Below, piece by piece: positions 2,076 to 45,207 of a DNA stretch of 54,477 nucleotides (within the stretch, counting starts at the first letter, position 1; each line of letters opens with the position of its first letter). The DNA is from Verrucomicrobia bacterium ADurb.Bin070 (lineage in GTDB: Bacteria; Verrucomicrobiota; Kiritimatiellia; RFP12; UBA1067), in contig MWEJ01000002.1 in the NCBI GenBank assembly GCA_002071025.1, positions 1 to 54,477 of the forward strand, given 5' to 3'. Both the position numbers and the translations under genes were made by a program. A model generated the notes under the pieces. It was not told the origin of the DNA. It did no database searches and saw only the letters and a list, made by a program, of their open reading frames with translations.

Positions 2076-2254
2076 AACAGCCTACCTTGCTCAAAAAAAA
2101 GAGTGGTCGCAACTATATCTTTTTTAATGCACGCTCGCAAGCACGCTTCCCACAACAGTTTCCTCTTGTAGCAACCAACCGTACCTTGCGGACCCCGTTC
2201 TCCCGCGTTTTCTGCGTGTGAGTTCCCGTACAAATCCGCTATACTCTCCGCGTC

Positions 2255-3349: not shown

Positions 3350-3370
3350 GCGCGGCTGCCGTGCGCCGGC

Positions 3371-5308: not shown

Positions 5309-5360
5309 ATAGGCCCCCTTCTCCAGTTTACCCAATACGCCAACGATACCCGGCGGCCGC

Positions 5361-6779: not shown

Positions 6780-6982
6780 GTTTTGAAGCCCCACCGATGA
6801 ATGATGCAATGAGAACCGCATCCTCAGCCGCGTCAAACGACGCTCAAACCAAGACATTGTGGCACAGGCATCGGGAATGTTCAAGCGCCCCTGGCCTCTG
6901 CATTTCGCCCACAACGATGAGTTGCCGATCTTGCGGCAAGACGGTATGCTCATTGTCACATGATGCAAGGAGCACACATCTC

Positions 6983-15009: not shown

Positions 15010-15016
15010 GCCCCTC

Positions 15017-15931: not shown

Positions 15932-15935
15932 GCGG

Positions 15936-23113: not shown

Positions 23114-23176
23114 CCCCTCTTCCCTTTCTGTAACCCAACACATGATGTCAAAAGCAGGGCGCAAGACGCAAGACCG

Positions 23177-26789: not shown

Positions 26790-29700
26790 ATGTCGGATTT
26801 CGACCAAGAACTGCACCGTATCAACGGCAAGATCAACCGTTGGCACGCCACGGAGCATCTGATCGTGGCGGCGGCCCTTCTGCTGACCGCGTGGGTGGCG
26901 CTGACGGCACTCGATGTGTGGCTCCGCCCGCGGACTTACGGACGGCTGTCGTTGTCGCTTGTCCTGATGGCTCTGGCCGGGGCCTCGCTGGTCTGGCTGG
27001 TGCGCGTCGTCAACCGCAAGCGTTCGCCAGCCGCTGTGGCCGCGTTTCTCGAAAAAAGGTTCCCGCAACTCGACAACCACCTCATCAACCGCGTGCTCTT
27101 TGCCAGCGAGCACGCGCCCTCTTCCTGGCTGCGCACTTATTTGAATGAAGGCGTGCCGGGATTCTCCGCGTTGCCGCTGCATGAGATCAAGGATCGTCGC
27201 CTGCGCAAGCGCGGCGCGATTGCCGTGGCGGCCGCAGGGCTTTTGCTGGCCGTGCCCGCGTTCGTGCTCGGCAACGCCTGGACCGTGGCGATGCAGCGCG
27301 TGTTGAATCCCTTCTCGCGCCTTTCGCCGCCGACCTTCGCGACGGTCCTCGCGGTGACTCCGGCGAGCAAGACCATCGCGCAGGGTTCCGGCATCGACCT
27401 GGTGGTGAAGGCCACGGGACGAGCCGGTCAGTTCGTGGATTTGGACCTTTATCCGGCCGATGACAAGCGTTCAACCGTGCGGGTCGGACAGTTCAAGGCG
27501 ACCGGCGTAGAAGAGGAGTTCCCCTACCGGGTCTCTAAAATAGCCACCTCGCTCCGCTACCGGTTCAAAGTCGGCGACGCCTATCCGACAGACACCTACA
27601 CAATCGACACCGTGCCACCGTTAGCGCTCTCCAGCCTGCAGCTCACTGTCACGCCGCCCGGCTACACGTCGCTGGCACCTCTCACATTCGATGCGCTGAC
27701 CAACGCGGTTGCGATCCCAGTTCGCTCCAAAGTCACTTTTCAGATAGCCTGCAACCGACCGCTCGAGACCTCCCAGGTCCTCCTTGACAAGGAAACGTTG
27801 ACGCTGACGCCCGGCACCGACAAGGCGAACTGGTCCGGCGGCATCGTGATTACAGACGGTGCCCTCTTTCAAATTGCGGCGCGCGACACTTACGGCCTTG
27901 AAATGCGAGTGCCGGTGCGCTTTGCCCTTATCGAAGACCGCGCACCCGGTATCCGCTTGGTGATCCCTTCAGCCGCGAAAGCGGTCCTGCCGCCCAACGC
28001 CGCGCCGGTTGTGCAATTCGAGGTCAGCGATGAATACGGTCTCGGCAAGGTGCGCATGGAGCGCGTCAACAAGGGCGCTAAGCCGGGGGCCGAGGGGGAG
28101 GTCCTGAAAGAGTGGGATCTTGCCGGTCAGAAGAGTTTTACGGAAAAGTGGACCGGCTCTCTGGAAGATGTGTCGGCCTCTTCGGCCTTGCGCATCGTGG
28201 CCTGCGACACCGCCGACGGCGACGCACCCAATCGGACGGTCAGCCAGCAGATCCTGTTTGAAATGACGACGCTCTCAGCGCAGCTTGCCGCCGAGCAGCA
28301 GAACCGCGGCGACGCGCGAAAGACGATCGGCGAGCTGGTCGCGCGCCAGCGGGCCGCGCTCACCACCACCGCGCGGTTGCAAGCAGACCTGCCCGCATAC
28401 GATGAGCAGCTCTGGCAGGAGGTCGCCGACAAGCAGAAGTCGATCCGCACGTATGCCGAGACCCTGCTGACGACCAAAGACGCGGCGGTCGGCACGGCAC
28501 GCGTCGCGTTGGACAAGGCGGTTAAAGGGCCGTTACCGGACGCCACCACGCGGCTGACCCACATGGTGACGGGAACGTCGGAAACACGCGAGGAAAATGC
28601 CAAGCTTGCCGTCGACGCGCAAAACACGGTGCTGCGGCTCTTGGTGCAGGCGGACGGCAATATGAACAAGGGGGAGGTCTCACAGGCCGCTGCCGGTGTT
28701 CTGGCCATGCTGGAGGGCATCCGCAAAGGACAGACCGCCAATCTCGCTGCCACATTGAAAGCCGTAGAAAAGGCGTCCGAACTGCAGGAAGCGATCATTG
28801 ACCGGCAGGACTATCTTTCGCAGGACATGGAGGCGATGATCGGCTTCTGCCGGTCAGAGGCCAAACAAGACCGTGACGACGAAGAGTTCGGCGCCCTGAT
28901 GAGCAAGATCGCCGACCGAGCGGTTGAACTGAAACTTCACCCCACCATGGTCACGATCGCCGAGGTCATGGAATCTGAACGGATCGCGGACGCCGTGCCT
29001 CCGCAGAACAGTGTGACCAACGGTATCGCCATGCTGATGGATCTCCTCAAGGAGTGGCGCGAGACCGAGACCAAGGATAAGACTGAAGACGCACTGGCTA
29101 TTATTAAGGATGCGAGGCAGTCCATCAAAAAGATGGAGGATTTGCAGGCGCGCGTCGTGGATGCCCTGCGCGAGACTGGCGGCCAGGGAGACAAGACCGA
29201 AAAAATCGACGATGACTTGCTTGAGGAAATCGTTGAACTCAAAGCAAACATGGCGCAGGCCATGCTGAAGGTCGCCACCGACCTGCAGGCCATGCCTGAG
29301 CTGGATGCCGTCAACGAACTGGTGACCGACACCTTCCAGACGTATGAAGAGATGAAGCAGGAGGAGGGGTCCGGCACCAACGCTGTAGTCGAGGTCGGCC
29401 TGCAAAAAGAGGACTTCTTGCTCGACACACTGATCATGACCGGACAGAAGGCGGACGAGATGGAGATGTGGCTTGTCGCTAAATCTGACAACGTTAAACG
29501 CAACATGGAGACGATCGACAAGGAAGAAATGAAGGGGCCGGTCGGACAGGTGACCATGCCGGAAGAGTTGCAGGACATCATCGGCGACCTGTTGGAGTCC
29601 GAAGAAGAGCAGTCGGAAAAGGCGGATGATTCCGTGACCAATCAAGGCATGGCCAACATTGACATGGGATGGGGCATTTCCGAAGGCGAAACCGTCAGTT

Positions 29701-30365
29701 ACAGCGCGGCCGGCAAATCCGGCAACGACCGTCCTGACCACAAGGATCAGGACGGTCGCTCGCAGGTTGGGAGGCAGGGCATGTCAGACGGCGAGGTGAT
29801 GTCGCGTTCCGGCAAGATCAACGAGGGCGACAAGAATCTTGATAAACGGCGCACGCAGGACTCCAACCAATCCGGTGACGTCGAGGAAGAGGGCCATTCG
29901 GACGCCGTGGCCACGGGCGGCGGCAAGAACTCCGGTTACTCGCAGGACAAGGGGATGGAGGGCGGCGAAGGTGCCACGCGGCGCGACACCAAGGTAGAAG
30001 CCGACTCCGCCGAGAGTACGCGCGCCCAGTTGACCCGTAACGCCGAAGCGGTGTATGCCCAGGCGCAACTCAACAACCTGCGGACTTACGATCTCAAGAA
30101 GTATATTGCATTCAGCAAGCAGATCGATCTGCTGCAGAAGCAAAACGCTTCGCCGGCAATGATTGCCGAACTGCACAAGAAAGCGTTGCAGGCGCTCAGC
30201 ACCACCTACACGTCGCTGGAGAACGGTATCGGCAACGCGGACATGGGGGCGGTCAGCAATACGGAGAACGCTGCGGAAGCGATCGCCGCATCGCCGGACG
30301 AAGCACCGGCCGAATACCGCGATATGGTGTCGGATTACTTCAAAGCGATCGGCGAGATGCAATAG
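26790..30365 (+). CDS. 1191-aa membrane protein: three N-terminal TM helices, beta-rich region, long helical/coiled-coil region, acidic low-complexity tail (function unknown)
   Basis: AAGGAG at 26778-26783, 6 nt before the ATG. TM segments are LIVAAALLLTAWVALTALDVWL, LSLSLVLMALAGASLVWLV and AIAVAAAGLLLAVPAFVLG. Residues ~180-480 are beta-like (V/T-rich). Residues ~480-900 are Ala/Leu/Glu/Lys/Gln-rich helical sequence. Residues ~900-1100 are rich in D/E/G/S/K. The overall architecture loosely recalls proteins I remember as annotated DUF4175, but this is unverified. Confidence 0.6.
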   Translation: MSDFDQELHRINGKINRWHATEHLIVAAALLLTAWVALTALDVWLRPRTYGRLSLSLVLMALAGASLVWLVRVVNRKRSPAAVAAFLEKRFPQLDNHLINRVLFASEHAPSSWLRTYLNEGVPGFSALPLHEIKDRRLRKRGAIAVAAAGLLLAVPAFVLGNAWTVAMQRVLNPFSRLSPPTFATVLAVTPASKTIAQGSGIDLVVKATGRAGQFVDLDLYPADDKRSTVRVGQFKATGVEEEFPYRVSKIATSLRYRFKVGDAYPTDTYTIDTVPPLALSSLQLTVTPPGYTSLAPLTFDALTNAVAIPVRSKVTFQIACNRPLETSQVLLDKETLTLTPGTDKANWSGGIVITDGALFQIAARDTYGLEMRVPVRFALIEDRAPGIRLVIPSAAKAVLPPNAAPVVQFEVSDEYGLGKVRMERVNKGAKPGAEGEVLKEWDLAGQKSFTEKWTGSLEDVSASSALRIVACDTADGDAPNRTVSQQILFEMTTLSAQLAAEQQNRGDARKTIGELVARQRAALTTTARLQADLPAYDEQLWQEVADKQKSIRTYAETLLTTKDAAVGTARVALDKAVKGPLPDATTRLTHMVTGTSETREENAKLAVDAQNTVLRLLVQADGNMNKGEVSQAAAGVLAMLEGIRKGQTANLAATLKAVEKASELQEAIIDRQDYLSQDMEAMIGFCRSEAKQDRDDEEFGALMSKIADRAVELKLHPTMVTIAEVMESERIADAVPPQNSVTNGIAMLMDLLKEWRETETKDKTEDALAIIKDARQSIKKMEDLQARVVDALRETGGQGDKTEKIDDDLLEEIVELKANMAQAMLKVATDLQAMPELDAVNELVTDTFQTYEEMKQEEGSGTNAVVEVGLQKEDFLLDTLIMTGQKADEMEMWLVAKSDNVKRNMETIDKEEMKGPVGQVTMPEELQDIIGDLLESEEEQSEKADDSVTNQGMANIDMGWGISEGETVSYSAAGKSGNDRPDHKDQDGRSQVGRQGMSDGEVMSRSGKINEGDKNLDKRRTQDSNQSGDVEEEGHSDAVATGGGKNSGYSQDKGMEGGEGATRRDTKVEADSAESTRAQLTRNAEAVYAQAQLNNLRTYDLKKYIAFSKQIDLLQKQNASPAMIAELHKKALQALSTTYTSLENGIGNADMGAVSNTENAAEAIAASPDEAPAEYRDMVSDYFKAIGEMQ

Positions 30366-30396
30366 TGTGCGGACGAGCCGCTCAAGGAGTCGTGTG

Positions 30397-32694
30397 GTGT
30401 TGAAGATTAGAGAGAAGACCGTCCCCCTCAAACGAAAAAGGTTGGACCGTCGTTGTGCGAGGCACCTTCCATTCTTCTTTATATCCGTCACGCTGTTCGC
30501 AGCCGGGCGGAGCGGGGCGCAGCAAGAGGCGTGGGCCGTACCCGGCGCGGCGCTGCGGGTAGACGTGACCGTCTCGCGTGAGCCTGACCATCCCGATCTG
30601 GGTGTTTTCGTTAAGATCCCCAACGGGGGCCTGTTACCCGGCAAATTCCGCATCCCTGATGTGCGCGACGCTCAGGGTAAACAGTTGGAAAGTCTCATTG
30701 TCGCGGACTCACAAACCGACGGTTTCGGAGTGCTGTTCGCCAAGCCTGGCGACGGGGAGACCGCTACGGTCTATATCACACCTTCCGCCAGTGCGCCACC
30801 GCGGCCTGCGAGCACGCGTCTTTTCCCGGCGACCTTTTTCTTTTCAAAAAACGGCAACGCCAGTCTCGAAGTGGCCAAGCGAATGGAGCGGGATTATCCG
30901 CCCGCACAAGGCGCATCGTTCGACGAATGGGATTATGGCATCGGATCGATGGTCAACCCCTTCGGCCCTGATGATGATTTTTCCACGTGGATTGTCGGCG
31001 CGTTTTTTTTGGAAAAGAAGGAGCGTATCTATTTTTGCACGATTTCGGATGAAGGTTCCGAGTTCGCGATCAACGGCAAGACGGTCCACAGTTGGCCCGG
31101 GATCCATACGCGGCAAGGCGGCGCCAAAGGGCAGCGCGGCGATTGGGTTGAACTTGGACCAGGACTGCACCGTATCGACTACTATCACTTCGAAAAAACC
31201 GGCCCTCAGGAAATCAACCTCTGCTGGAAGCGTCCCGGCATGGAGACGAAAGACGGGTTGCCGGAGCATGTGTCCGGACTCGCCCAGTCGGGACGGGCCG
31301 ACATCAAACGGATCGCGTTCAAGGACGGTCGCGTCGCGGGTGTCATCCGCGGCAACACCCAACGACTCGGCTATTACTGGATTGGTGAAAAGCCGCTGGT
31401 TTTGTTCGCGCTTTCGTACGGCGCGGTAACGCCGTCGGACACGCAGTCTGTCACATGGGAGTTCCCCCCCAACAAGCGCTTTGCCGAACCCGCGATTGAC
31501 TGGCTGGTTTCGGGGGACCCCGACACCATTTCCTATCCCGTTACGCTAGCCGTTTCTAATGCGGCGGGGCTCGCACGAACCACGGTGCACATGCGCTGTT
31601 TCTGGACCCCTCCCGCGCTCTCGTTGGACACCAAGAGCGACCGGCTCACGGTGAGAAAAGCCCTTTATGACATGTTGCGCGCTGTTCCTCAACCTGCCGA
31701 TCCCTGCGCTGACTGGAGCAACGATCACTGGGGCATGCTGATCGAACTGCTGGAACCCTATAACGCCGGTCCGATTCTGATCGAGCTTTTCAACCGCGGC
31801 TTCGACACGCTGCAGAAAAGGCCCGCCGAAGAGCGTTGGGTTTTGGAAGACCGATTCATTGAGACGCTGCGTCTGCAACGCAAAGACAAGCTCCTGCTGG
31901 ACTGGATCGCACGGCTGGAGAAAAACGAGAGAACCAGCGCGCGTAAATTTCGCTGGAAAGATGAGCGGGTGTGCGCCTATCTGTTTGACATCAACAATCC
32001 TGCGGCAGCCAAACGCGAAGTCGTGTTTTTAAAAGAAACGGCGATCGCACCGGACCAGACACAACTCGCGGCACTGCGCCAAGGGGATGTCGAGCGGGCT
32101 CTCGGTAATTATGACGCTGCCATGAAGTTCTACAAGGATGCGCAAGACCGATTCAGAAGCCGCAATAAAGTCGGCATGGCCGGCGGACGCTTGACGTATG
32201 TGGGAGCCCGCAAGCGGCGCGACGCCGAGCCCGAAACCAACACGACCGCCAAGGCGTCATCCAAGCGGCCTGCGATGCAGAGTCTCGCCTCGAGGATGAA
32301 GGTGGACGACTGGAAGGTCTATACCGTGCATGATGCGTCCATGTATGCAACGATCACGAGCTTCCTCGCCCAAGATGCGTTGCCGGAAGCCTTTCAGAAG
32401 CTGACCGATTGGGAGAACGAATCGCCTGCCTCCAAGCTCTCCGGAGACTACCCGATGGCGGAAGCCCGGGTTTATCTCTCTGTCGGTGATCTGCGCCGCG
32501 CGGTCAATGCGTTGGCGACCTATCGCAAGAGCGTGACCATGAGCGCCCAGCTCGCGGACGCCATGAAGCTGGAGATTGAGTGCCTGCAACAGCTCAACGA
32601 CAAAACACGTATCAAAGAAATCGCCGCTGATTTTGTTCAACGCTTCCCGGGGCATCCCTATGAAGCAGCCATGAAAGAGGTGCTCGCGCCATGA
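30397..32694 (+). CDS. secreted protein with PA14-like domain and C-terminal TPR-like helical repeats
   Basis: ORF-track frame 30163..32694 overlaps the previous gene. The start is placed at GTG 30397 (alternatives GTG 30394, TTG 30400) after AAGGAG at 30384-30389. The signal peptide is HLPFFFISVTLFAAGRSGAQQ. The PA14-like block is FCTISDEGSEFAINGKTVHSW...WVELGPGLHRIDYYHFEKTGPQEINLCWKRPG (about nt 30980-31240). The C-terminal third is helical, with ALGNYDAAMKFYKDA-type repeats. Confidence 0.6.
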   Translation: MLKIREKTVPLKRKRLDRRCARHLPFFFISVTLFAAGRSGAQQEAWAVPGAALRVDVTVSREPDHPDLGVFVKIPNGGLLPGKFRIPDVRDAQGKQLESLIVADSQTDGFGVLFAKPGDGETATVYITPSASAPPRPASTRLFPATFFFSKNGNASLEVAKRMERDYPPAQGASFDEWDYGIGSMVNPFGPDDDFSTWIVGAFFLEKKERIYFCTISDEGSEFAINGKTVHSWPGIHTRQGGAKGQRGDWVELGPGLHRIDYYHFEKTGPQEINLCWKRPGMETKDGLPEHVSGLAQSGRADIKRIAFKDGRVAGVIRGNTQRLGYYWIGEKPLVLFALSYGAVTPSDTQSVTWEFPPNKRFAEPAIDWLVSGDPDTISYPVTLAVSNAAGLARTTVHMRCFWTPPALSLDTKSDRLTVRKALYDMLRAVPQPADPCADWSNDHWGMLIELLEPYNAGPILIELFNRGFDTLQKRPAEERWVLEDRFIETLRLQRKDKLLLDWIARLEKNERTSARKFRWKDERVCAYLFDINNPAAAKREVVFLKETAIAPDQTQLAALRQGDVERALGNYDAAMKFYKDAQDRFRSRNKVGMAGGRLTYVGARKRRDAEPETNTTAKASSKRPAMQSLASRMKVDDWKVYTVHDASMYATITSFLAQDALPEAFQKLTDWENESPASKLSGDYPMAEARVYLSVGDLRRAVNALATYRKSVTMSAQLADAMKLEIECLQQLNDKTRIKEIAADFVQRFPGHPYEAAMKEVLAP

Positions 32695-33587
32695 TGACAT
32701 TCCGTATAGCAGCCCGTGCGGCAGGCGCTCTGCTGGTCGTTCTCGCGGCAACGCTGGCAGGCGCGGCGATCAAAATCGATCCCGGCAACATGTCGCCCTA
32801 TAGCAAAACCAAGGTCGGCATCAACCTGTATTCCAAACCCGATCCCTCGGCCGGAGGCGGCTTGCGCGGCATGATCGCCGGCAATCCATCCGAGGTGCTC
32901 GGCGTTCTGGCCATGCCTCAAAAATTCCCACACATTTCTGCACTGTCGGATGTGGAGGGCGGCGGCTCCACCAAGAATGCGCGCAACATCAACAAAGACA
33001 TGACCAATCAGGTCTATCTCGCCGCGTTGGGCGCGAATAATGCGTTCTCCTTCTACGGGTTGCCGCCCGGAAAATATGATCTTTTTGTGCTGTGCGAGAA
33101 CTGTTTTTACGAAGGCCTGCTGCTCTCGCGCGAACCGAACACATTGGCCGATCCTGACGTGCGCGCGATCAAAGCGAAGGTCAACGAGTCCAATCCTTTT
33201 TTCAACGTTAAAAACCAGCACCGCATCGAAGGGCAGGGCGGAACCTTTGGTAAAGCACGCGTTTTGGAACAGGAAGTCCGGACCCTGCCGGTCACCCTGC
33301 AAAGCGCCGAAGTCCTGAAGCACATACAAATCCGCAGCATCAAGCTCTGCCTGATGGAAAGTGTCGGGACCAGTAAGCTAGGCACCCATTGGGAGATGAA
33401 AAAGACCCGCGAGATCGCACGTCAGGAAATGGGCCCCCCCGACACCAAAGGACTGATTCCCGGCTACTTCTGCAAGCCGCTCCAAGGCATCCGCGTGGCG
33501 ACCTCTGTGAAGGATTTGGGGACGATCACGTTGGCCAGCGATCCCGCCCCCGGGACATCTGCCGTGCCAGCCCAAGAATCACGTTAA
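32691..33587 (+). CDS. secreted protein of unknown function
   Basis: 298 aa. The ATG overlaps the upstream stop (ATGATGA). The signal peptide is MMTFRIAARAAGALLVVLAATLAGAA. The segment FSFYGLPPGKYDLFVLCE resembles strands of carboxypeptidase-regulatory/prealbumin-like folds. Confidence 0.5.
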   Translation: MMTFRIAARAAGALLVVLAATLAGAAIKIDPGNMSPYSKTKVGINLYSKPDPSAGGGLRGMIAGNPSEVLGVLAMPQKFPHISALSDVEGGGSTKNARNINKDMTNQVYLAALGANNAFSFYGLPPGKYDLFVLCENCFYEGLLLSREPNTLADPDVRAIKAKVNESNPFFNVKNQHRIEGQGGTFGKARVLEQEVRTLPVTLQSAEVLKHIQIRSIKLCLMESVGTSKLGTHWEMKKTREIARQEMGPPDTKGLIPGYFCKPLQGIRVATSVKDLGTITLASDPAPGTSAVPAQESR

Positions 33588-33617
33588 GTCTGTCTGACAA
33601 TAAAGGAACACACACAC

Positions 33618-35003
33618 ATGGCAAAGTTATTCTTGCAACAGCCCGAGGGCGACCAATTGCTGACCGAACTCGCGCCGACCCAACCCTATCTGATCGGGCG
33701 CAGCGAAGACTGTTCTATCTGCATCCCCGTCGAAGCGATTTCCAGCCGGCACGCGCAACTCACCCCCGTCGACGAGGGCTGGATTCTTGAAGACCTGAAC
33801 AGTTCCAATGGAACGACAGTCAACGGGCAGACGTTGGGCAAGGCGATTCTCGCCAGCGGATGCCAGATCATTCTTGGCGGGCAGGTTGTTTTGCTCTTCA
33901 TTGAAGAACCTGCCGCTGAGCAAGCGAGCGAGCCTGCCGCCGCAGAAGCGCAGCCTGCCGTAAAAAAAGGCCGGCGCGAACTGAAGGTGCAGGGGGCGTC
34001 GGAAGAAGATCTCAAGCTCGTTAAGGCGATGTCGCTGCGCTCCGAGAAGATCCGGACGGAAATCGCCAAGGTCATCATCGGACAGGTCGACATCATCGAC
34101 CAAGTGATGATGGTCATCATCGCAGGCGGGCACGGTCTGCTTGTCGGTATGCCCGGCATGGCCAAAACCACGCTCTGCGCCACGATCGCCAAGGTGCTCG
34201 ACATGGAGTTTAAGCGCGTCCAATTCACGCCGGATTTGATGCCCACCGACATCACCGGCACCGAGATCCTGGAACACGACCCCGTGACGGACAAAAAGAG
34301 CTTCCGGTTTATCAAGGGGCCGATTTTCACCAACATGCTGCTGGCCGACGAAATCAACCGTACGCCGCCCAAGACTCAAGCCTCCCTGCTGGAAGCCATG
34401 CAGGAAAAATGCGTAACGGTCGGGAATCAGACTTACAAGCTCGACGCCCCCTTCTTTGTGCTCGCCACGCAGAATCCGATCGAACAGGAGGGCACCTACC
34501 CGCTGCCGGAAGCGCAGCAAGACCGTTTTATGTTCAACCTGTGGGTGGATTACCCAAAAGAGGACGAGGAAGAGACCGTGGTGAAGGCAACCACCGTTGC
34601 CAAAAGTGAACAACCTCAGAAGGTCATCACCAAGGACGAACTGCTCCAGCTCCAAGCTGTGGTGCGAAAGATTCCTGTATCCGATCACGTCATCAAATAT
34701 GCCGTCCGCCTCGTGCGCGCCACGCGGCCCCAAGACGAGAAAAGCCCGGATTTCATTAAGAAGTATGTCTCAAACGGTGCAGGCCCGCGTGCCGGACAGT
34801 TCCTCGTGATGGCAGCCAAAGCGCGTGCCGTGCTGGAAGGTCGAATCCACGTAAGCTGTGGCGATGTCGTGAAAGCAGCGGTGCCGGTGCTGCGCCACCG
34901 CATCATCGCTAACTTCGCGGCCGACTCAGAAGGACTCTCGACGACCGCTATTGTCGAGCGTTTGCTCAAGGCGGTCGAACAGCCCGACGACAAGGACTAT
35001 TGA
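33618..35003 (+). CDS. FHA domain fused to MoxR-class AAA+ ATPase (AAA_3)
   Basis: 461 aa. The N-terminal FHA pattern is YLIGRSEDCSICIP...ISSRHAQL...WILEDLNSSNGTTVNGQ. MoxR blocks are Walker A GMPGMAKT, Walker B LLADEINRTPPKTQASLLEAMQE and FFVLATQNPIEQEGTYPLPEAQQDRF. Confidence 0.85.
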   Translation: MAKLFLQQPEGDQLLTELAPTQPYLIGRSEDCSICIPVEAISSRHAQLTPVDEGWILEDLNSSNGTTVNGQTLGKAILASGCQIILGGQVVLLFIEEPAAEQASEPAAAEAQPAVKKGRRELKVQGASEEDLKLVKAMSLRSEKIRTEIAKVIIGQVDIIDQVMMVIIAGGHGLLVGMPGMAKTTLCATIAKVLDMEFKRVQFTPDLMPTDITGTEILEHDPVTDKKSFRFIKGPIFTNMLLADEINRTPPKTQASLLEAMQEKCVTVGNQTYKLDAPFFVLATQNPIEQEGTYPLPEAQQDRFMFNLWVDYPKEDEEETVVKATTVAKSEQPQKVITKDELLQLQAVVRKIPVSDHVIKYAVRLVRATRPQDEKSPDFIKKYVSNGAGPRAGQFLVMAAKARAVLEGRIHVSCGDVVKAAVPVLRHRIIANFAADSEGLSTTAIVERLLKAVEQPDDKDY

Positions 35004-37564: not shown

Positions 37565-37612
37565 CGCCATTCACAAGACAGATCGCGCACATTCGGCATG
37601 CAAGGTCCAGCG

Positions 37613-37777
37613 ATGAAATCAAAACCTCCCCAATGTCATACCCCCAAAGCACACCCAAAGACCGACCGCAAGCGGCTCGCCGACCGCGAACGCCGCGCGG
37701 CACTCCTGGTGGCGGCCCTCTTTTTCCTGGGGCTCTTCGTGCGGGTTCTGCGCCACTTCATTGACGGTTCGCGTTGA
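37613..37777 (+). CDS. speculative 54-codon ORF encoding a basic N-terminus plus one TM helix
   Basis: Below the ORF-track size cut-off; translated by hand as MKSKPPQCHTPKAHPKTDRKRLADRERRAALLVAALFFLGLFVRVLRHFIDGSR. The SD is weak (AAGG 8 nt upstream). It lies 48 nt after the nuclease stop. Confidence 0.25.
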   Translation: MKSKPPQCHTPKAHPKTDRKRLADRERRAALLVAALFFLGLFVRVLRHFIDGSR

Positions 37778-37790
37778 GGTCGCGCCCGGA

Positions 37791-40700
37791 TTAGGGCGAA
37801 TTGGTAATGACCAGAATCGGCTTACTGAACCTCGGGTCTTCATACTCGATGACCCATCGCATGAAGAGCTGGCCGCCGTTGGCATCCGCGAACTCATCAA
37901 GCAAGAATGGATTCTGAATAAACACGCGGGTGGTGTGATTGCTGTCGAACGACTCAGGAGCCAGCTTATACTGCGCCAGCATCGTCCACTCCGGCTTGGT
38001 CAGACTGTCTTTGGCCGAGATCTTGAATACGGCGTCACCAAACACGTGATCCCCCAGCAAGCTGGGCACATTGGTCCCATTCAACGCCAACCACGCGGTC
38101 ATGAAGTAGTTGGTTGTCGCCTCTTCGCGCTCTACCTTCAGGATGCCGCCCTCCAAATAATTCGTCGTCGTCGGATTGGCATTCAGCCAATAACGTTCGT
38201 ACAACTCCAATTCACGCCCGTAGTAATACGTAGGCGCCAACGGCTGGTCACCGAAACTCAGCAACCACGTCATAATGTCAGTCCCCAAATTCAGATCGCT
38301 GACATCCTGACGCAGCCCGAACGTGACGGCAATCGTCAGGTTGGTCTGCACGTGGTTCAGCGGCAGATTAAACGTCTCAACCTCGCCGCCAGTCAGATGC
38401 TCGACGCCGTTCACGGTGACCGACTTGATGCGATACCAGCTATCCGCTTCGTACAGGATATTCGTAGACCCGTCCCGGCGCACTTTGAACGCCAAGGGCG
38501 TCACGCGCTTGCCGTTCTGCACACCGTGCAGCGGCGTGAGCGACGAAACCACAACCACATTCGAGACCCCGGGCGCCAGCACGTTAAAGTCTTCAACCGT
38601 TTGCCCCACATTCAAACCGCCGGGTGTCCATGCCACCTGATTGGTCCAATCCGACACCAACGGCAAGGCATACCGCACGGAGTTCGTCAACACGCTCAGC
38701 GAACCGCCCTGTCCTTCTGTTCCGATATACTCAAACCGGAGATCAGGATGCGCGGCCGCCCACTCCGCGCCTGAATACGACCCGCCCCACTCCGGGCGGC
38801 GGTCATACACAACCGAGTGCTCGTACATACCCCAAGGGCGGCGCAAGCGGATCCCCAACGGCTTGCTGTTCGGGAATTTACCCGCAAAGTTCAGGTCGCT
38901 GTAATCCAGCTTCGGCAACGGCGGAACAACCCCCGCGATTTCTTCAGGCGGCACACTGGGATCTTGCCCGACCACGAAAAAGGCGTAGCCGTTCGTGACC
39001 GGCTGCTGTTCCGGCAGCGTCCCCATAAACGAAATGGTATACACGGGGTCGTATTCATTCGACGGGACCAGATCAAGATGCCAACCGGAAAGGCTGATTT
39101 CGGCAGGCACGGCGATCTCCACATACTTGTTTTGGCCGATATGCGCAGTCCCGCCTTCATAGACCTCGTACGCGTTGATCTCGTTCAGCCACACTGCGCC
39201 GACCGGCACATCGTACACGATGTAGTAAGCCGCCCAGCCGCCCGTCGAGGCAAACCGCTGATTCAAATCCACCGGATAATACCACGACGGCACGGTAAAG
39301 ACACTTTGATAGGCTTCCAGTTCAGTCTGCGCGGCATCCTCGTAGGTCGCCCGGACACGGAACTGAACGACCTGGTTCTTCTCTTGCGGAGAGACCACAT
39401 TGAACAGGTCCGTACGGTAAAGATGATTTTCCGCATCGTGCAGGTCCATCTCCAACGTGGCCACTTCTGCAGCCGGCCAGTTGTCAACGCCCCAGACGTT
39501 GGTCCCGACATAATAATCGACATACAGCCGAATGTTCTGCGGGGAGAGGCGGAGATTGCTCAGTTGCGCTTCGAAACCGACCTCGTCGGAGTGCAGCGGC
39601 TGGAAACGTTCCTCACTGAACCCGCCGCCCTCGACGCACAGGGCCCGCACATTGACGATCTCGAAACCGGGCAGGACCGGCTCGGTGACCGCAAGTTCCT
39701 CGACGCACACACGCTGACCGCCGCCCGTAGTCGGAATCACAAGCTTGGCGGCACGATAGGCCCGTCCGTCCGCCGGCACAAACGAGTACGTTTCATAGAG
39801 CTGGTTCGTGATCAGATAGGTGTGCGCCAACTGCCAGTCCGCATCCGGCGCGCGCGGCCCTGCGGCATGCGACGTGACATACAAATAAACGGCTGCGGGC
39901 GAGCTGGCATACATGCGCGCCATGAAGGTCAACGAGCCCAGGCCCGTCGGCAGCAGGGGTGTCTTCACGAAAGCCTCAGGATACAGGATCTGGTACGGGT
40001 CCGTCTCGAGAGTCTGGCTGTTGTTCAGGAAAAGGGCTTTTGTCTCATCCAGCATCACCCGCATCGGATCCGTATCGGTCACCTTCACATTGTACGCCCG
40101 CCAGTCCGCGTCATCCACGTCCGGTTCATCCCACACCACGGCATTGTCGATTTCCACAAGCGCATTGGTATAGATCCCGCTCCGGTCGTTCAGCACTCTC
40201 AGGTAGCCGGAAATGTTGGTGCCGAGGTAGGCGAGTTCATGGTTGAAAGAGGACATCGCCGTATTCACCACCACGGTCTGAATGCCGCTCCACAACGAGC
40301 TGTCCCACGACGGGGCAAACTGAACGACGAGCCGGGCAGGCGGCCGAACGACCCGATAATCGAACTCCAGCATGCCGGTGCCATTCACCATCCGCGGCGC
40401 CCTGACCGCTTGGTCCAGCCACTCGCCCTCGACGCCCAGCGAATCGATCTCGCGCCCGCCGCGCATGTGGTCAAGCTGCACCGTTTTCACCGACGTGCGC
40501 AGGAACGTCCCGGACCCCGTATCCTGAAGGGGCACCCAGGTCAGCCCATTATTCCGGCTGTAGGCCACCCCATAGCCGCCGAAAAGCCCGCCTCCGGCAG
40601 GCCCGACCCGGCCATCCGAGCCGCAGCCGAGCCGCAGTTCGAAGGGATACCAGCCCGTGCCGAGATACGCGAATGCTTCGGATGACGGGGTTTCCGTGTC

Positions 40701-43700
40701 CGTATTGCTCAAAATGACGGCACCGTTAATTTTGACCTGCACGCTGCCGATGAAATTCTCGGCAAAGATATTCGTGCTGCCCGCGCCATTCAGATAAATC
40801 CACCCGTTATAGACGTAGGTCGTATTCGTCACCCACCCCTCGTCCGTGTTCGCGTAACGCGTGGAGAGCTGGAGGGATGACATCGGGTTCACTTGCGTGG
40901 TGTTGAACGGCCCGGGAATCCGGCCTTCATTCACGCCCGCCACGCTGTTGGTGACGACCCATGCCTCAGTCGCCACCCACTCGTCATTCTCGCCCTCATT
41001 ATCGCCTTCCTCTTCGTCCGGACTCAGATCAGACGACTCTTGGCCGCGCCAACTGGTCATCTTGATCTCATCGACGACCACATCGACACGCAGATTATCC
41101 GTGCGCCCCAGCACCTGCATCATGATGAAATGCGAGCGCCAGGCATAAACCGGCACGTCGTAAACAAAGTAGTCAAAACCCGTCAGCGTCACCTCTTTGA
41201 ACAGACTCCACGCCAGCGTGCCCGGCGCCTGCGGCGGATCATCAGTCCCGTACTCGGTCGGCTGCAGAAAGACACCCAACTTCTGGGTGGGATTCACCGC
41301 ATAGATGCCTTTTGGCGAAACGCCAGAGAGCGCCTCCCAACGTCCGACCGGCGCGACCGACCAATTCAAAACATCGGCGGAGAAGTCGGTTTTGCTGCGA
41401 AGAATGGAGGTCAGCGAACCGGTAGGCGCGGCTCCTGCTGCGGTGGGCCGCGTGTAGACATCGGAAAAGCCCGCGCGACATTCAGACGACATGAAGCCAC
41501 ATGTGCCGCCCAACGTCAAGGCTGCGCCACCTTTCTGGCCGGAATCATTATACGTCAAGATGTTGTCGTACGTCCCGAATTTGCACCGGATCTCCGTTGT
41601 AATCCCGGACGTATACATCCTCAACTCACCGACCGTGCCCGATGTCAACTGCAAATCTTGATTGGGTGTGTTCTTGGCAAGCTGATAGGCGACACCGTTC
41701 TTCCACTTATACAGTTCAAACATGAGCCGCTTGTCACGGCTCAAATTGGCGGTATCCGGTATCTGCGTGACCCGGAATTCATAAAAATTATCCGGATCGG
41801 CGAAATATCCGAGCAGCGAAACCGTCGCTTCCTGAGGCGACAGCCCTCCTCCCGTAGCGACCATTCTGGCCTGTACCAAGTAGTTCTGCATCGCGAATCC
41901 CTGCTTATAGTAGGGCGCTTCATAAGGATTCGCCACCTGCCCCAAGCGGCACTTGAACGAGAGCCGTCCGATACCGTCCGGGAGCGTGCCGCCTTCACGG
42001 TTATGGATATAGCCGAGACCTAGACCTTCCGCGCCGCCTTTCAAGCGGATCGCCACGTTTCGGAACTTCAGGTCGGAAAGATCCGGCGTGTTGAACGAGT
42101 TGGCGGCAAGGCGGTCAACCACATAGGCCGAGCCGCCGCTTAGCCACCCGTTGAAAGTGGCGTACGGATAGGTGTTATAGACGTTAGTCTGGGCCGGTCT
42201 TCCCAAGAAAAATTCATCAATCGTCTTTGTGCCGTTTTCCGGCCAAGCGTCGAACGTGTTGCCGAACCGTTGCTTGGAGGCCTGCCCGTTGCTGTCGGTA
42301 AAGACATTCGGCGGCGCCGCCCAGACATTGAAATTCTGGTACTCGGCGCGGCTCGTCATATACTCCATCGTGTTGGCATTGAACAGCACCTGGATGTACC
42401 CGCCGCCCAGCGCCGTGACGCGCATCGGCGCGTCCGGCCGAGTCGACCGCGCCACGCAGACGCCGCCGAAGGGCACCACCCCGATCAGCGCCTGCGAGGG
42501 TTCGGCCCAATAGACCGGGTTGGTATCGAAACTGTCACTGCCGGCGACATATTTGCGATCGCCGCGGAAATAGAACTGCAGGTTCGTCTGCGCCCCGTTG
42601 GCGAGCGGAATCATGCCGCGCCACACATCGTTGCTGACCAGCGTCATCGGGATCGGGTTCTCGTCGTAATATGGCCCCGTCACCACCGAAACCGCGCCGT
42701 AAGGCGACGGATAGGGACGCAGGCGCGCGTAAAACTCGCGGCCGCCTTCAACGGAGGTGTCACCGCGCAAGGATCGCGGCGATAATCCCTCGCTTTGTTC
42801 CGGATTACCTGGCCACCACACGTATCCTGATTGCGTAAAATCCAAAGGTTTGTATCGATATCCCAAGAAGTTACAGACAAAATAATATTCTAAATCCCCA
42901 ACACGAGGCTGAGGCGGCAAAACAGCTTGGTAGATCTCGCCGTCACCATTACTACCCGTGCCCGCGACATACGTCATCGGCAAATTCGCCCACGTGTTTG
43001 AAAATTGATTTAAATAACGCCACCGATAGTAAACCAGCAACTCCCGATTGTACCCGATCAAACCGTACTGAGTGCGTGAATAATCACTCGTTCCAACATT
43101 GCTCACGACGCACCGGATCGAACACGATTCATCGAGAGCTGGATAACCTGGCGAAAAAATCACGTTTGTTTTTTCAACGATGACATCTGAAGGCGGGAAA
43201 GAAACGGCAATGTTGTCAACCGCCACAAACGCCTTGTCATCGTCTCCAGGATAATAGTAGACGGGCCCTGTCCGCCGAATACGCAAACGAGCGGCCCCAC
43301 GGTAATTGAGAGTCCGTTTATACCGGATAGGCGCTCCGTTGGTGGCATTAATAGGTAGTTCATCTAGAACTTGCCAATTATTTGAAAACTGGGCATTCTC
43401 ATACTCCAGCATGACATTCGTTACACCCCCACCCAAGTAGGTGTATTCCAACATATTCGTCGCGATTTCAATCGTTAAGTGATTGGTCTCAGCGGCTGTC
43501 ACGTTGATAGCATCGAAGTAAAACGTTCCAACACCCTCTGGATAATACGGTGTTTCAATACGTGCCGCTGCCGAATTTTGCAGGTTGGCCTGCCAATTGG
43601 TCTGAATAACAGAACTGTACGATGCCGGAGGAATGGTTTGTGCTGCTGGTATAAGGGCAGCAGTGCCTGTGCGACAACCGAGAAAGCGCCATATGTTTGT

Positions 43701-43976
43701 CCGGCTTCCGTCCTCCGAAACAACAGCATAAACATGATTCGTACCGTTCAAAAGCGCCTTACGTGCATCACCAGAACGACCGGGGGGCTCGGGCCCCTCA
43801 TGTGTCCAATACGGCAGGTAATAATCCTGCCGCTTATCGTCCAACAGCGAATGCCCCGTCCAGTTGTTAAAGAGCATTCTCCGCTCAACGGGCAATGTCG
43901 AGGTCTGGGCATTCGCATAACGAATTCCCAAAACGACAATCATCAGTACCCACAACCTATATGCCGTTCTCTTCAT
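37791..43976 (-). CDS. giant (2061 aa) secreted multidomain protein with PA14-like and lamin-tail-domain (LTD)-like modules
   Basis: GGGAG lies 6 nt before ATG 43976. The signal peptide is MKRTAYRLWVLMIVVLGIRYANAQ. The PA14-like block is YVYNGWIYLNGAGSTNIFAENFIGSVQVKINGAVIL...GWYPFELRLGCG (about nt 40520-40850). An acidic linker is SPDEEEGDNEGENDEW. The LTD-like block is AVWLNEINAYEV...NKYVEIAVPAEISLSGWHLDL (about nt 38800-39210). The protein is rich in Tyr, Trp, Asn and Thr throughout. Confidence 0.8.
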   Translation of the reverse strand: MKRTAYRLWVLMIVVLGIRYANAQTSTLPVERRMLFNNWTGHSLLDDKRQDYYLPYWTHEGPEPPGRSGDARKALLNGTNHVYAVVSEDGSRTNIWRFLGCRTGTAALIPAAQTIPPASYSSVIQTNWQANLQNSAAARIETPYYPEGVGTFYFDAINVTAAETNHLTIEIATNMLEYTYLGGGVTNVMLEYENAQFSNNWQVLDELPINATNGAPIRYKRTLNYRGAARLRIRRTGPVYYYPGDDDKAFVAVDNIAVSFPPSDVIVEKTNVIFSPGYPALDESCSIRCVVSNVGTSDYSRTQYGLIGYNRELLVYYRWRYLNQFSNTWANLPMTYVAGTGSNGDGEIYQAVLPPQPRVGDLEYYFVCNFLGYRYKPLDFTQSGYVWWPGNPEQSEGLSPRSLRGDTSVEGGREFYARLRPYPSPYGAVSVVTGPYYDENPIPMTLVSNDVWRGMIPLANGAQTNLQFYFRGDRKYVAGSDSFDTNPVYWAEPSQALIGVVPFGGVCVARSTRPDAPMRVTALGGGYIQVLFNANTMEYMTSRAEYQNFNVWAAPPNVFTDSNGQASKQRFGNTFDAWPENGTKTIDEFFLGRPAQTNVYNTYPYATFNGWLSGGSAYVVDRLAANSFNTPDLSDLKFRNVAIRLKGGAEGLGLGYIHNREGGTLPDGIGRLSFKCRLGQVANPYEAPYYKQGFAMQNYLVQARMVATGGGLSPQEATVSLLGYFADPDNFYEFRVTQIPDTANLSRDKRLMFELYKWKNGVAYQLAKNTPNQDLQLTSGTVGELRMYTSGITTEIRCKFGTYDNILTYNDSGQKGGAALTLGGTCGFMSSECRAGFSDVYTRPTAAGAAPTGSLTSILRSKTDFSADVLNWSVAPVGRWEALSGVSPKGIYAVNPTQKLGVFLQPTEYGTDDPPQAPGTLAWSLFKEVTLTGFDYFVYDVPVYAWRSHFIMMQVLGRTDNLRVDVVVDEIKMTSWRGQESSDLSPDEEEGDNEGENDEWVATEAWVVTNSVAGVNEGRIPGPFNTTQVNPMSSLQLSTRYANTDEGWVTNTTYVYNGWIYLNGAGSTNIFAENFIGSVQVKINGAVILSNTDTETPSSEAFAYLGTGWYPFELRLGCGSDGRVGPAGGGLFGGYGVAYSRNNGLTWVPLQDTGSGTFLRTSVKTVQLDHMRGGREIDSLGVEGEWLDQAVRAPRMVNGTGMLEFDYRVVRPPARLVVQFAPSWDSSLWSGIQTVVVNTAMSSFNHELAYLGTNISGYLRVLNDRSGIYTNALVEIDNAVVWDEPDVDDADWRAYNVKVTDTDPMRVMLDETKALFLNNSQTLETDPYQILYPEAFVKTPLLPTGLGSLTFMARMYASSPAAVYLYVTSHAAGPRAPDADWQLAHTYLITNQLYETYSFVPADGRAYRAAKLVIPTTGGGQRVCVEELAVTEPVLPGFEIVNVRALCVEGGGFSEERFQPLHSDEVGFEAQLSNLRLSPQNIRLYVDYYVGTNVWGVDNWPAAEVATLEMDLHDAENHLYRTDLFNVVSPQEKNQVVQFRVRATYEDAAQTELEAYQSVFTVPSWYYPVDLNQRFASTGGWAAYYIVYDVPVGAVWLNEINAYEVYEGGTAHIGQNKYVEIAVPAEISLSGWHLDLVPSNEYDPVYTISFMGTLPEQQPVTNGYAFFVVGQDPSVPPEEIAGVVPPLPKLDYSDLNFAGKFPNSKPLGIRLRRPWGMYEHSVVYDRRPEWGGSYSGAEWAAAHPDLRFEYIGTEGQGGSLSVLTNSVRYALPLVSDWTNQVAWTPGGLNVGQTVEDFNVLAPGVSNVVVVSSLTPLHGVQNGKRVTPLAFKVRRDGSTNILYEADSWYRIKSVTVNGVEHLTGGEVETFNLPLNHVQTNLTIAVTFGLRQDVSDLNLGTDIMTWLLSFGDQPLAPTYYYGRELELYERYWLNANPTTTNYLEGGILKVEREEATTNYFMTAWLALNGTNVPSLLGDHVFGDAVFKISAKDSLTKPEWTMLAQYKLAPESFDSNHTTRVFIQNPFLLDEFADANGGQLFMRWVIEYEDPRFSKPILVITNSP

Positions 43977-44047
43977 CCAGCACTCCCGCCTCTTTCTCGA
44001 TCCGTCAAATCACTGCCAAACTGCCGACGCCGCGCTTGCCGCGAGGC

Positions 44048-45046
44048 TCACTTCACGTGCTCGCTCCGCGCGGAGGACCATTCGCCGGAATCGGCCGGCA
44101 CATCGACGCCGTTGCACATCAAGCAGGTCAAGTCCTGCAGTTTGGACTTCGTGGGCCTCTCCGGGGCCACGATCCCGTCGACGTGGCCGTCCGCGAAGGC
44201 CACATGGGCGACATGCCGCTTGCCGATCTTGTGGTTGAACCCGAGGATCTCTTCATTCGTCGGCTTTTTGTTGTAGCCCCGAATCTCGACCTCCAGCACG
44301 CCGTCCGCCGCCTTGGTGTCTGTCTCGACCGACTCGTCGAAGTTCGCGCCTTCGACCCTGTAGGCCGGCAACTCGGCGAACAACAGCAGCGAGCCTGCGT
44401 TCCCGCGGTCCGACAAACTGTTCACGTTGACACCGCGTCCCGTCGCTTTCTTCGCGCCGCTGGTCCGATAATCGTAGCCGAAATAGGCGTTCATCACATA
44501 CGACCGGCGCACCGGCGCGTTCAACTTGTGGACGCCCTTGCGCTTGCACACCCCCTTGTGGGTGTCACACACGTACGTCGTCAGGTCCGCACCCACGTAG
44601 CTCCACAAAAGCCCGTTCGAGATCGAGTGGTACGTCGTGCTCTTGTCACCGAAAAAGCTGGCCGTCTTGGTCGATCCGCTCTGGGGGTTCCTGTTGGGCC
44701 ACGGGAACCCGCCCGCCGACCACGTCCACGACACCCACCCCGGCCGATGGTGGTACATCTCCTGGTACTCCCCGCCCACCATCGCGGGCCACGACCCCTC
44801 GTGCGACCCCGCCCAGGGCATGGTCTCATCCGGCTGCCAAACTCCGTTTTTACCGGGATGCGAATCGACCGCGTAAGACAAAGCAGCCTGCGCGAGATTT
44901 TTCAGGTTGGCCTTGCACCGCACCGCCTGACCGGAAGCCCGCGTCCTACCCACCTGAGTCGTCAACGCCGCCGCTAGGACCCCCAAAATCGATATCACAA
45001 CCAAGAGTTCAACCAGCGTAAAGCCTTTGATTGACCGACAAAACAT
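44048..45046 (-). CDS. prepilin-type N-terminal cleavage/methylation domain protein, DUF1559-like
   Basis: ORF-track frame 44048..45073 (TTG). ATG 45046 follows AGGAG. MFCRSIKGFTLVELLVVISILGVLAAAL is a class-III signal (G/FTLVE). The C-terminal RHVAHVAFADGHVDG resembles the H-X9-DG motif of this PVC-expanded family, though the spacing is not exactly 9. Confidence 0.8.
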   Translation of the reverse strand: MFCRSIKGFTLVELLVVISILGVLAAALTTQVGRTRASGQAVRCKANLKNLAQAALSYAVDSHPGKNGVWQPDETMPWAGSHEGSWPAMVGGEYQEMYHHRPGWVSWTWSAGGFPWPNRNPQSGSTKTASFFGDKSTTYHSISNGLLWSYVGADLTTYVCDTHKGVCKRKGVHKLNAPVRRSYVMNAYFGYDYRTSGAKKATGRGVNVNSLSDRGNAGSLLLFAELPAYRVEGANFDESVETDTKAADGVLEVEIRGYNKKPTNEEILGFNHKIGKRHVAHVAFADGHVDGIVAPERPTKSKLQDLTCLMCNGVDVPADSGEWSSARSEHVK

Positions 45047-45207
45047 AACACTCCTAAGTCCGCTTTTTATCAACCCGTATTGTCTCTTATCTCACCACAG
45101 GTGGCAAGGGTTTTTATCCGTCTTTTTTCGCTTGCGAATCCATCATGAATCCTGTGAAATAGGTCACAATTGTTTCTTCCATAGAAGGTTAAGAAGGATT
45201 CTCTCTT

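Follow-up and report, generated by a model that had tools for sequence, protein, structure and literature searches.

A conserved three-gene cassette of Kiritimatiellia: a pilin-like gene tied to the gene of a very large secreted protein

What does a lone pilin-like gene do beside the gene of a very large secreted protein? The question is raised by a locus on contig MWEJ01000002.1 of Verrucomicrobia bacterium ADurb.Bin070, of which a stretch of 54,477 nucleotides was analyzed (the window). On its minus strand, a 332-residue open reading frame (ORF) with a class-III signal (44048..45046) is followed by a 71-nucleotide spacer (43977..44047) and a 2,061-residue ORF with a Sec-type signal peptide (37791..43976). 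An earlier note, made from the letters alone, had described this order and suggested that the pilin-like protein anchors or presents the larger one, called the giant here. The coordinates and the Sec signal bear out the description. The locus is a conserved, Kiritimatiellia-specific three-gene cassette that encodes the pilin-like protein, a Sec-exported protein of ~2,000 residues with a predicted all-β fold, and a small membrane protein. For its function we lean, tentatively, to the idea that the dedicated pilin grips the giant by its C-terminal module, and would in this way carry it and hold it on a type II secretion system (T2SS) or type IV filament machine encoded elsewhere.

Conservation of the pilin-like gene beside the giant gene

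The giant belongs to a family that is almost confined to metagenome-assembled genomes (MAGs) labelled Kiritimatiellia or Kiritimatiellae, with 72 clusters in a set of 5.8 billion proteins and 159 relatives in GTDB species representatives. In one of them, 'Kiritimatiellae bacterium STCSWMC_188' (locus L006), the giant is 94-98% identical to that of the window over the segments covered. We searched 82 loci with giant homologues (1.15 Mb) in all six frames with a relaxed class-III motif. Every ORF that carries the motif (39/39) lies directly upstream of a giant gene on the same strand, and none was found elsewhere in the flanks. The reverse search gave the same picture: all four further pilins of the subfamily on long contigs are followed by a giant of 1,857-2,628 residues, one of which is fragmented by frameshifts. 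The control was a set of 24 unrelated metagenomic prepilin-like ORFs with at least 4.8 kb of downstream sequence, and none of these has an ORF of at least 1,500 residues behind it. The control set was kept from a metagenome scan with the pilin alignment, which was swamped by generic FTLVELLVV prepilins and returned no true subfamily member. The adjacency of the two genes is more than chance. The enrichment agrees with the pairing that the earlier note had put forward, and gene order and sequence together strongly support that the pilin and the giant are a functional pair. Separately, one long-read contig carries a different second N_methyl gene (256 residues; L164:16159-16929) downstream of a frameshift-fragmented giant.

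The two genes might instead be inherited together without any contact between their products, if they have one promoter in common and contribute to the same niche function, for instance remodelling of the cell surface. Upstream of the pair is proS in 18 of the 31 informative loci, in the same proS-HU-hisS neighbourhood as in the window, so part of the conservation is plain synteny. Generic mirror-tree correlations and the absence of the pilin from most of a distant clade, both described below, also fit such passive inheritance. The other 13 loci have a different context, however, and the adjacency is kept from 97% down to ~30% identity while the flanking genes change. Prolyl-tRNA synthetase (ProRS) stays 70-93% identical while the pilin-giant pair diverges to 30-75%, indicating that the linkage outlives synteny and much sequence change. 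The flanks hold no other prepilin-like gene, and in relatives of at least 30% identity the pilin is fully concordant with one module of the giant, as shown in the next section. We consider inheritance without contact improbable.

The layout in the window fits co-transcription of the two genes. The spacer contains no terminator-like hairpin (folding z-score 0.25), and a GGGAG ribosome-binding site precedes the ATG of the giant. In orthologous loci the spacers are mostly between -39 and +90 nucleotides. The pilin ATG has AGGAG directly before it. Between proS and the pilin-like gene, which are divergent, is a sigma-70-like promoter match upstream of the latter, TTGCCA-17-GACAAT (45079..45107, minus strand); the site is weak, a consensus match only, and the number of matches in the region is not above that in shuffled sequences. 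In many orthologues an in-frame 'RSVM' upstream of the ATG (45047-45073 in the window) is kept. We rejected the longer pilin start that this might suggest (TTG at 45073), since the conserved 'RSVM' codons coincide with the AGGAG Shine-Dalgarno sequence; the leader is probably overcalled by gene callers that extend the pilin ORF upstream.

The giant protein and its C-terminal module

The giant carries a Sec-type signal peptide at residues 1-23, MKRTAYRLWVLMIVVLGIRYANA followed by Q, with the predicted cleavage site between IRYANA and QTST. It is moderately rich in Tyr (5.9%), Trp (2.4%), Asn (6.1%) and Thr (7.4%) and has an acidic linker, SSDLSPDEEEGDNEGENDEW, at residues 981-1000; both traits had been read correctly from the sequence before. 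Alignment of the family divides the protein, encoded throughout on the minus strand, into modules. The signal peptide and a conserved LPxxRxMLFNxW motif at the N-terminus are followed by N1 (to residue ~480, with long insertions in some members) and N2 (~481-980). The N-terminal 'head' region (40977..43907, residues ~24-1000) is common to the paralogues described below and homogenised within genomes. M0 (40482..40859, residues ~1040-1165) is optional, being confined to the closest relatives and a small number of other members. M1 (~1166-1450), C1 (~1451-1800) and C2 (~1801-2061) complete the chain, and C1 and C2 together form the C-terminal module (37794..39626, residues 1451-2061).

Searches of Pfam, NCBIfam and PDB sequences with the single sequence, with 20 members of the family and with a family profile gave no match to the giant. 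We modelled residues 991-2061 with AlphaFold2 from an alignment of 52 sequences. The model has a predicted local distance difference test score (pLDDT) of 83.7 and shows about seven β-sandwich domains after a partly disordered linker. Whole-chain Foldseek searches with this C-terminal half found carbohydrate-binding modules (CBMs) of families 22 (4xup) and 4 (3k4z), MAM-Ig domains (2c9a, 8a1f), reelin, Eph ligand-binding domains and the Bacteroides surface glycan-binding protein SGBP-B (7kwb), with high probabilities (1.0 for the CBM, MAM-Ig and SGBP-B structures) but low TM-scores of 0.1-0.3. For the other half, hhalign found that an N-terminal domain (N1a, residues 30-270) is homologous to the modelled sandwich M1b (1301-1450) with 91.8% probability, suggesting that at least part of the N-terminal half consists of the same kind of domain. 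The giant is thus predicted to be an all-β chain of jelly-roll or sandwich domains, with the fold modelled in its C-terminal half. The earlier note had seen 'PA14-like' and 'LTD-like' modules in it. These names did not hold up, as PA14, GLEYA and LTD gave no Pfam match at E≤1 in the window giant or 20 relatives. The 'PA14-like' stretch is M0, which AlphaFold2 models as a small generic β-sandwich, and the 'LTD-like' stretch (VWLNEINA...YVEIAVP...LSGW, residues ~1590-1720) lies within the C-terminal module. In the models, a resemblance of these β-sandwich regions to PA14 or LTD at the level of the fold may still exist.

These data also bear on whether the giant is mainly an enzyme, for example one with a novel polysaccharide-degrading activity, rather than a protein for binding or display. 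Kiritimatiellia are glycan degraders (PMC5148204), the window encodes two glycoside hydrolase family 97 (GH97) enzymes, and the N-terminal 990 residues of the giant lie outside the AlphaFold2 model. However, no enzyme or catalytic family, which the earlier note had regarded as the result that would speak against its proposal, was found in the giant or in any of 20 diverse family members with Pfam, NCBIfam and PDB profiles. The modelled half is all β-sandwich, and, as N1a indicates, at least one of these sandwiches has a homologue in the N-terminal half. With these searches empty, the enzyme reading is unsupported and, in our view, very improbable.

The C-terminal module is the part of the giant that tracks the upstream pilin gene among relatives of at least 30% identity. 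A phmmer search with it found 267 proteins among 1.84 billion representatives, and in every match listed of at least 900 residues the module is at the C-terminal end. Within this identity range, all 31 complete giants with C1 and C2 have a pilin gene upstream, and none of the seven complete paralogues without C2, most of which also lack C1, does (L003, L016, L020, L025, L030, L047 and L057). A further two pilin-less loci are cut short by contig ends. No discordant case was found, and Fisher's exact test gives p ~8e-8 for 31 versus 7 cases that are phylogenetically non-independent.

Many genomes therefore hold two giants with the same homogenised 'head' and different 'tails', and a pilin gene only with the tail of the window type. 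In a tree of the N2 region, the pilin-less paralogues do not form one clade; each is placed next to the pilin-linked giant from its own MAG (L016 with L013, L030 with L022, L036 with L038). L013 and L016 are 100% identical in protein sequence over residues 100-700 and ~20% identical beyond residue ~1,100, and their DNA shares a tract of 3,250 nucleotides with 95.7% identity that starts at both start codons. In such pairs the near-identical tract ends around residue 1,000-1,100, and giant orthologues of different species are only ~50% identical. The three same-MAG pairs (L013:6000-9243 and L016:6000-9237; L022 and L030; L038 and L036) have tracts of 1.6-3.3 kb with 80-96% DNA identity, followed by unrelated tails. 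Such tracts suggest that the 'head' underwent gene conversion or was recently duplicated in part, although assembly chimerism between repeats in short-read MAGs might be an alternative source of the shared tracts. The species of the window appears to have a pilin-less paralogue too, since L025 comes from the same MAG as L006.

The pilin-less tails end in a conserved domain of ~90 residues of their own (...WxEYVxGxDPTN...RFFRVKVxMP). Its only match, to the Amuc_1099 pilus-like family, is non-significant (E 0.14). Eight of these proteins (P0021, P0036, P0038, P0041, P0045, P0046, P0050 and P0057) share a common domain over their last ~110 residues, with the consensus TPVPVPYAWL...DxDGDGxxxWxEYVxGxDPTN...VSNG...WxPDLGxARVYTVxGxTNL...RFFRVKVxMP. 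At L003:15413-23377, a second gene for a giant surface protein stands in tandem, directly after the pilin-less paralogue; its product has more than 3,000 residues and contains Peptidase_C25, weak LTD and CLIPPER domains.

A third gene is linked to the pair, which the earlier note had not recorded, nor had it recorded the pilin-less paralogues. The plus-strand ORF at 37598..37777 encodes 59 residues with a basic N-terminus, one transmembrane helix and the motif LTPxERxALxLVxxLFxLGxLVR, and has no Pfam match. It is convergent with the giant gene, and the 3' ends of the two are 14 nucleotides apart. A hidden Markov model built from six such ORFs was searched against 20,147 small ORFs of the giant loci. 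It gave 31 matches, all convergent and directly 3' of a giant gene at -8 to +163 nucleotides. The small gene is present in 25-26 of 36 pilin-linked loci and in none of nine pilin-less paralogue loci, and the genes beyond it vary between loci. By its sequence and position, this small membrane-protein gene is the third linked component of the cassette.

The pilin-like protein and its lineage

The pilin-like protein starts with MFCRSIK-G/FTLVELLVV, an eight-residue leader with Gly at -1, Phe at +1 and Glu at +5, and continues after the predicted cleavage site as FTLVELLVVISILGVLAAAL. This is a complete class-III signal. The motif occurs only once in the six frames of the window, at this gene. The sole Pfam match is N_methyl (PF07963, E 2.4e-8), in line with the earlier note, and the NCBIfam matches are to N-terminal pilin and pseudopilin models only (TIGR02532, 29.7 bits against a cutoff of 16.3). 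The AlphaFold2 model (pLDDT 92.9, predicted TM-score 0.86) shows an α1 helix at residues 11-60, a hairpin and helices, a six-stranded sheet at residues 221-293 and two C-terminal helices. The long α1 helix and the antiparallel β-sheet are the features of type IV pilin-like proteins, and the window protein is one of them. Solved pilins match it over residues 1-70 only in a PDB profile search, and Foldseek found no match of the model in the PDB with E<1. The fold of the head therefore cannot be assigned beyond α1 and is without a solved structural relative.

The subfamily comprises more than 120 close clusters with lengths of 271-350 residues. In alignments of 28 and 121 sequences, Phe9, Thr10, Glu13, Leu24, Cys44 (in RCKANLKNL), Trp104, Cys160 and Glu225 are invariant, as are Glu266 and Gly269 (in the window, E-I-L-G-F-N-H), His272, Asp286, Gly287 and His288. 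Near the C-terminus is GFNHKIGKRHVAHVAFADGHVDG, with the ...HVAFADGHVDG ending that had been noticed before as an FADGHVDG motif. The conserved C-terminal motif of the head (44177..44233, minus strand; residues 272-290) contains His272, Lys276, His281 and Asp286-Gly287-His288. The α/β head ends with GFNH-x13-DGHVD and the two C-terminal helices.

The earlier note had called the protein 'DUF1559-type'. This assignment stands through its orthologues, 16 of 28 of which match PF07596 (best E 3.5e-9) and 21 of 28 TIGR04294, the H-X9-DG model. PF07596 is also precomputed for many members of the subfamily, and several are named H-X9-DG proteins by JGI. The window protein itself falls below both models: it has no match to PF07596 at E≤1, and with TIGR04294 it scores 12.4 bits against a cutoff of 19 (E 0.11, aligned residues 280-289). 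Like the DUF1559/H-X9-DG proteins of Planctomycetota, Verrucomicrobiota and Lentisphaerota (PF07596, SBP_bac_10; TIGR04294), it has a class-III signal, a C-x-x-N-L-K-x-L helix end, a YxMN-type central motif and a C-terminal ...FADGxV motif. Unlike them, its subfamily is single-copy and tied to one partner gene rather than a large paralogous expansion. The H-X9-DG spacing also differs. In the window sequence FNH272-KIGK276-RHVAHVAFA-D286G287, the His residues are at X13, X7 and X4 relative to DG; the canonical X9 His is replaced by the nearly invariant Lys276, and the invariant His is at X13. The protein thus belongs to a divergent branch of the DUF1559/H-X9-DG lineage, an assignment made indirectly, through its orthologues. 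Our literature search found neither functional work on this family nor a published description of the pilin-giant pair.

The conserved residues raise the question of whether the pilin-like protein forms filaments at all. Processed or not, it could stay anchored in the inner membrane by its N-terminal helix and act on the giant in the periplasm, as a chaperone, as a maturation or modification factor, or as a metal-dependent enzyme with a His/Asp/Glu cluster, perhaps assisted by the small transmembrane protein. His163, Glu225, Asp248, Glu266, His272, His281, Asp286 and His288 are invariant or nearly so and could together make up a site for a metal or for catalysis. Past α1, no solved pilin resembles the head in structure, and the small membrane protein is conserved along with the pair. 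Genomes of the Planctomycetes-Verrucomicrobia-Chlamydiae (PVC) group encode so many DUF1559 proteins that they cannot all be filament subunits. However, the invariant class-III signal with Glu at +5 (E5) and the 50-residue α1 helix are hallmarks of subunits that assemble into filaments, and the protein matches no enzyme family. A partner outside a filament is rather unlikely in our view.

Possible roles of the cassette and its surroundings

How could the three products work together? In the mechanism we tentatively favour, the giant would reach the periplasm via Sec. There its C-terminal module of ~600 residues would act as the 'handle' that binds the globular head of the dedicated pilin-like partner. 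Prepilin peptidase would cut the partner, which would become part of a T2SS or type IV filament machine whose genes lie elsewhere in the genome. The giant would thereby cross the outer membrane and stay attached to a short (pseudo)pilus. The N-terminal ~1,000-1,400 residues of CBM/MAM-like sandwiches would then be exposed as a distal ligand-binding 'head', which would probably bind glycans. For the second giant, whose head is the same but whose tail differs and which has no pilin gene, we presume a different route or anchor. By analogy, display of the giant on a pseudopilus in the manner of minor pilins and PilY1 may be the most likely mechanism. It is compatible with the invariant E5, the 50-residue α1 helix and the linkage to the C-terminal module. 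The cultured Kiritimatiella glycovorans encodes a T2SS and is without TonB-dependent glycan uptake (PMC5148204). The giant genes of Omnitrophota lie downstream of T2SS-like loci and of small genes with class-III signals (bioRxiv 10.1101/2023.11.21.568195).

Several observations weigh against this mechanism. An invariant E5 is characteristic of subunits that sit beneath another pilin more than of the one at the apex. In agreement with the earlier note, no ATPase, platform protein, secretin or prepilin peptidase of a T2SS or type IV pilus was found among the Pfam-scanned ORFs of the window. A search for the class-III or FADGH motif found no pilin-giant fusion among 212 giant-family proteins. The structure model of the giant covers its C-terminal half only, and given the low TM-scores 'CBM-like' denotes no more than a fold class. 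Mirror-tree correlations with the pilin are 0.66-0.75 for every segment of the giant, so that the C-terminal module is not singled out. A distant clade of giants (24-28% identity, 2,200-3,700 residues, mostly from gut or rumen MAGs) has a pilin in three loci only despite C1/C2-like regions, which limits the rule of module and pilin to the closer clade. Finally, the 31-versus-7 association comes from non-independent cases, and a duplicated or converted tract that excludes both flanks could produce it.

Comparison with known systems is informative here. In the PilY1/PilC system, type IVa minor pilins are linked to a much larger non-pilin protein with a Sec signal, whose C-terminal part is pilus-proximal and whose N-terminal part is variable and ligand-binding. 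The cassette likewise joins the gene of a pilin-like protein to that of a far larger non-pilin with a Sec signal, and in the mechanism proposed above the two ends of the giant would have corresponding roles. However, the giant has no sequence or profile similarity to PilY1/PilC (Pfam, NCBIfam, PDB), its C-terminal half is modelled as sandwiches rather than a PilY1-type propeller, and there is one pilin gene instead of a set of four to five minor pilins, with no assembly genes nearby. In type IVb systems, CofJ and TcpF are secreted proteins of ~35 kDa that are encoded beside the large minor pilins CofB and TcpB, bind them by an N-terminal peptide and need this binding for export; their genes lie inside a complete pilus operon. 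Here it is the C-terminal module of the giant that is linked to the pilin, and no machinery is adjacent. The Verru_Chthon cassette (TIGR02596, TIGR02598, TIGR02599 and TIGR02600) is a PVC-lineage set of prepilin-type proteins with a large non-pilin protein. We rejected identity with it, because the giant matches no NCBIfam model, including that of protein A (TIGR02600), and the pilin matches proteins C and D over the N-terminal helix only, far below the cutoffs (18.5 versus 70 and 15.5 versus 256.5 bits). The Omnitrophota giants (bioRxiv 10.1101/2023.11.21.568195) are also very large and poorly annotated, have attachment or carbohydrate-binding-like domains and are associated with class-III-signal genes. 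They differ in being far larger, with many transmembrane regions and SecA-like domains, and in standing beside a secretion locus of more than ten genes, whereas the window cassette, in another phylum, has a soluble Sec substrate of about 2,000 residues, one pilin-like gene and no nearby machinery. In the way it would work, the cassette comes closest to a minor pilin and its large partner protein (PilY1/PilC, CofB-CofJ, TcpB-TcpF), yet in the features compared it is a member of none of these systems.

The type IVb analogues suggest a variant in which the pilin serves secretion rather than display. A substrate-specific pseudopilin at the tip of the T2SS pseudopilus would recognise the giant, probably via its C-terminal module, and push it through the secretin, after which the giant would be released or held otherwise. 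CofB and TcpB bind and export CofJ and TcpF in a comparable way, and the T2SS is a generic route for large folded periplasmic proteins in diderms. On the other hand, we know of no T2SS in which each substrate requires a pseudopilin of its own. The linkage of the genes supports this variant just as it does display. The giant has a Sec signal only, with no recognisable outer-membrane anchor, β-barrel or sorting signal, and Kiritimatiella has a T2SS (PMC5148204). Against export by the pilin, paralogues that share the head but have no pilin gene need to be exported too, which indicates that the pilin is not generally required to export this fold; release and retention fit the present data alike. 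We consider this variant unlikely, although a role of the pilin in export, or as a periplasmic partner outside a filament, fits the data described here as well as display does.

A more specific version of display can be imagined. The multi-CBM-like 'head' may be mounted on a retractable type IV filament by the DUF1559-like pilin that grips the C-terminal handle, for pilus-tethered capture of polysaccharides or prey surfaces. Such capture may serve the Kiritimatiellia, which lack SusC/D-type glycan uptake, and the second, pilin-independent copy of the head may be kept alike by gene conversion. This remains a doubtful proposal.

In the window, the pilin and giant genes are an isolated two-gene unit on the minus strand, with proS (divergent), the HU gene and hisS upstream and a convergent Endonuclease_NS gene downstream. 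The two GH97 genes are at 19034-21082 (plus strand) and 21299-23164 (minus strand), followed by the gene of a large hybrid sensor kinase (SBP_bac_3-GAF-PAS-HisKA-REC; 23177-26542, minus strand); this set fits a glycan-degrading lifestyle. The plus-strand cluster at 26790-35003 resembles a Bat/MoxR-type operon. It encodes a transmembrane protein of 1,191 residues with a highly acidic coiled region, an FHA-MoxR AAA ATPase, and proteins of 843 and 298 residues that have no Pfam match. The region at 28-30 kb has an unusual AT skew (+0.26) and a positive GC skew. At 2072-6977 on the minus strand are three consecutive ORFs (423, 668 and 538 residues) with coding-like GC content at third codon positions and no Pfam match. 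The GC content peaks at 0.695 over positions 14001-16000, compared with ~0.60-0.62 elsewhere, across the genes of a polyprenyl synthetase and an RmlD-like protein.

Few protein families of Planctomycetota, Verrucomicrobiota, Lentisphaerota and related lineages have expanded as much, or are understood as poorly, as the DUF1559/H-X9-DG pilin-like proteins. The one-to-one, context-independent partnership of pilin and module makes one branch of this family experimentally testable, as it provides a concrete hypothesis of a binary interaction. The same genomes supply a natural negative control in the paralogue that shares the head but differs in the tail and has no pilin. The cassette is relevant, too, to the export and display of very large surface proteins in the uncultured, glycan-degrading Kiritimatiellia of guts, digesters and sediments, in parallel with the giant genes associated with T2SS-like loci in Omnitrophota (bioRxiv 10.1101/2023.11.21.568195). 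If the capture proposal is true, a cargo-specific adaptor pilin would be the first function for a DUF1559/H-X9-DG protein, and the large DUF1559 expansions in PVC bacteria may be libraries of cargo adaptors.

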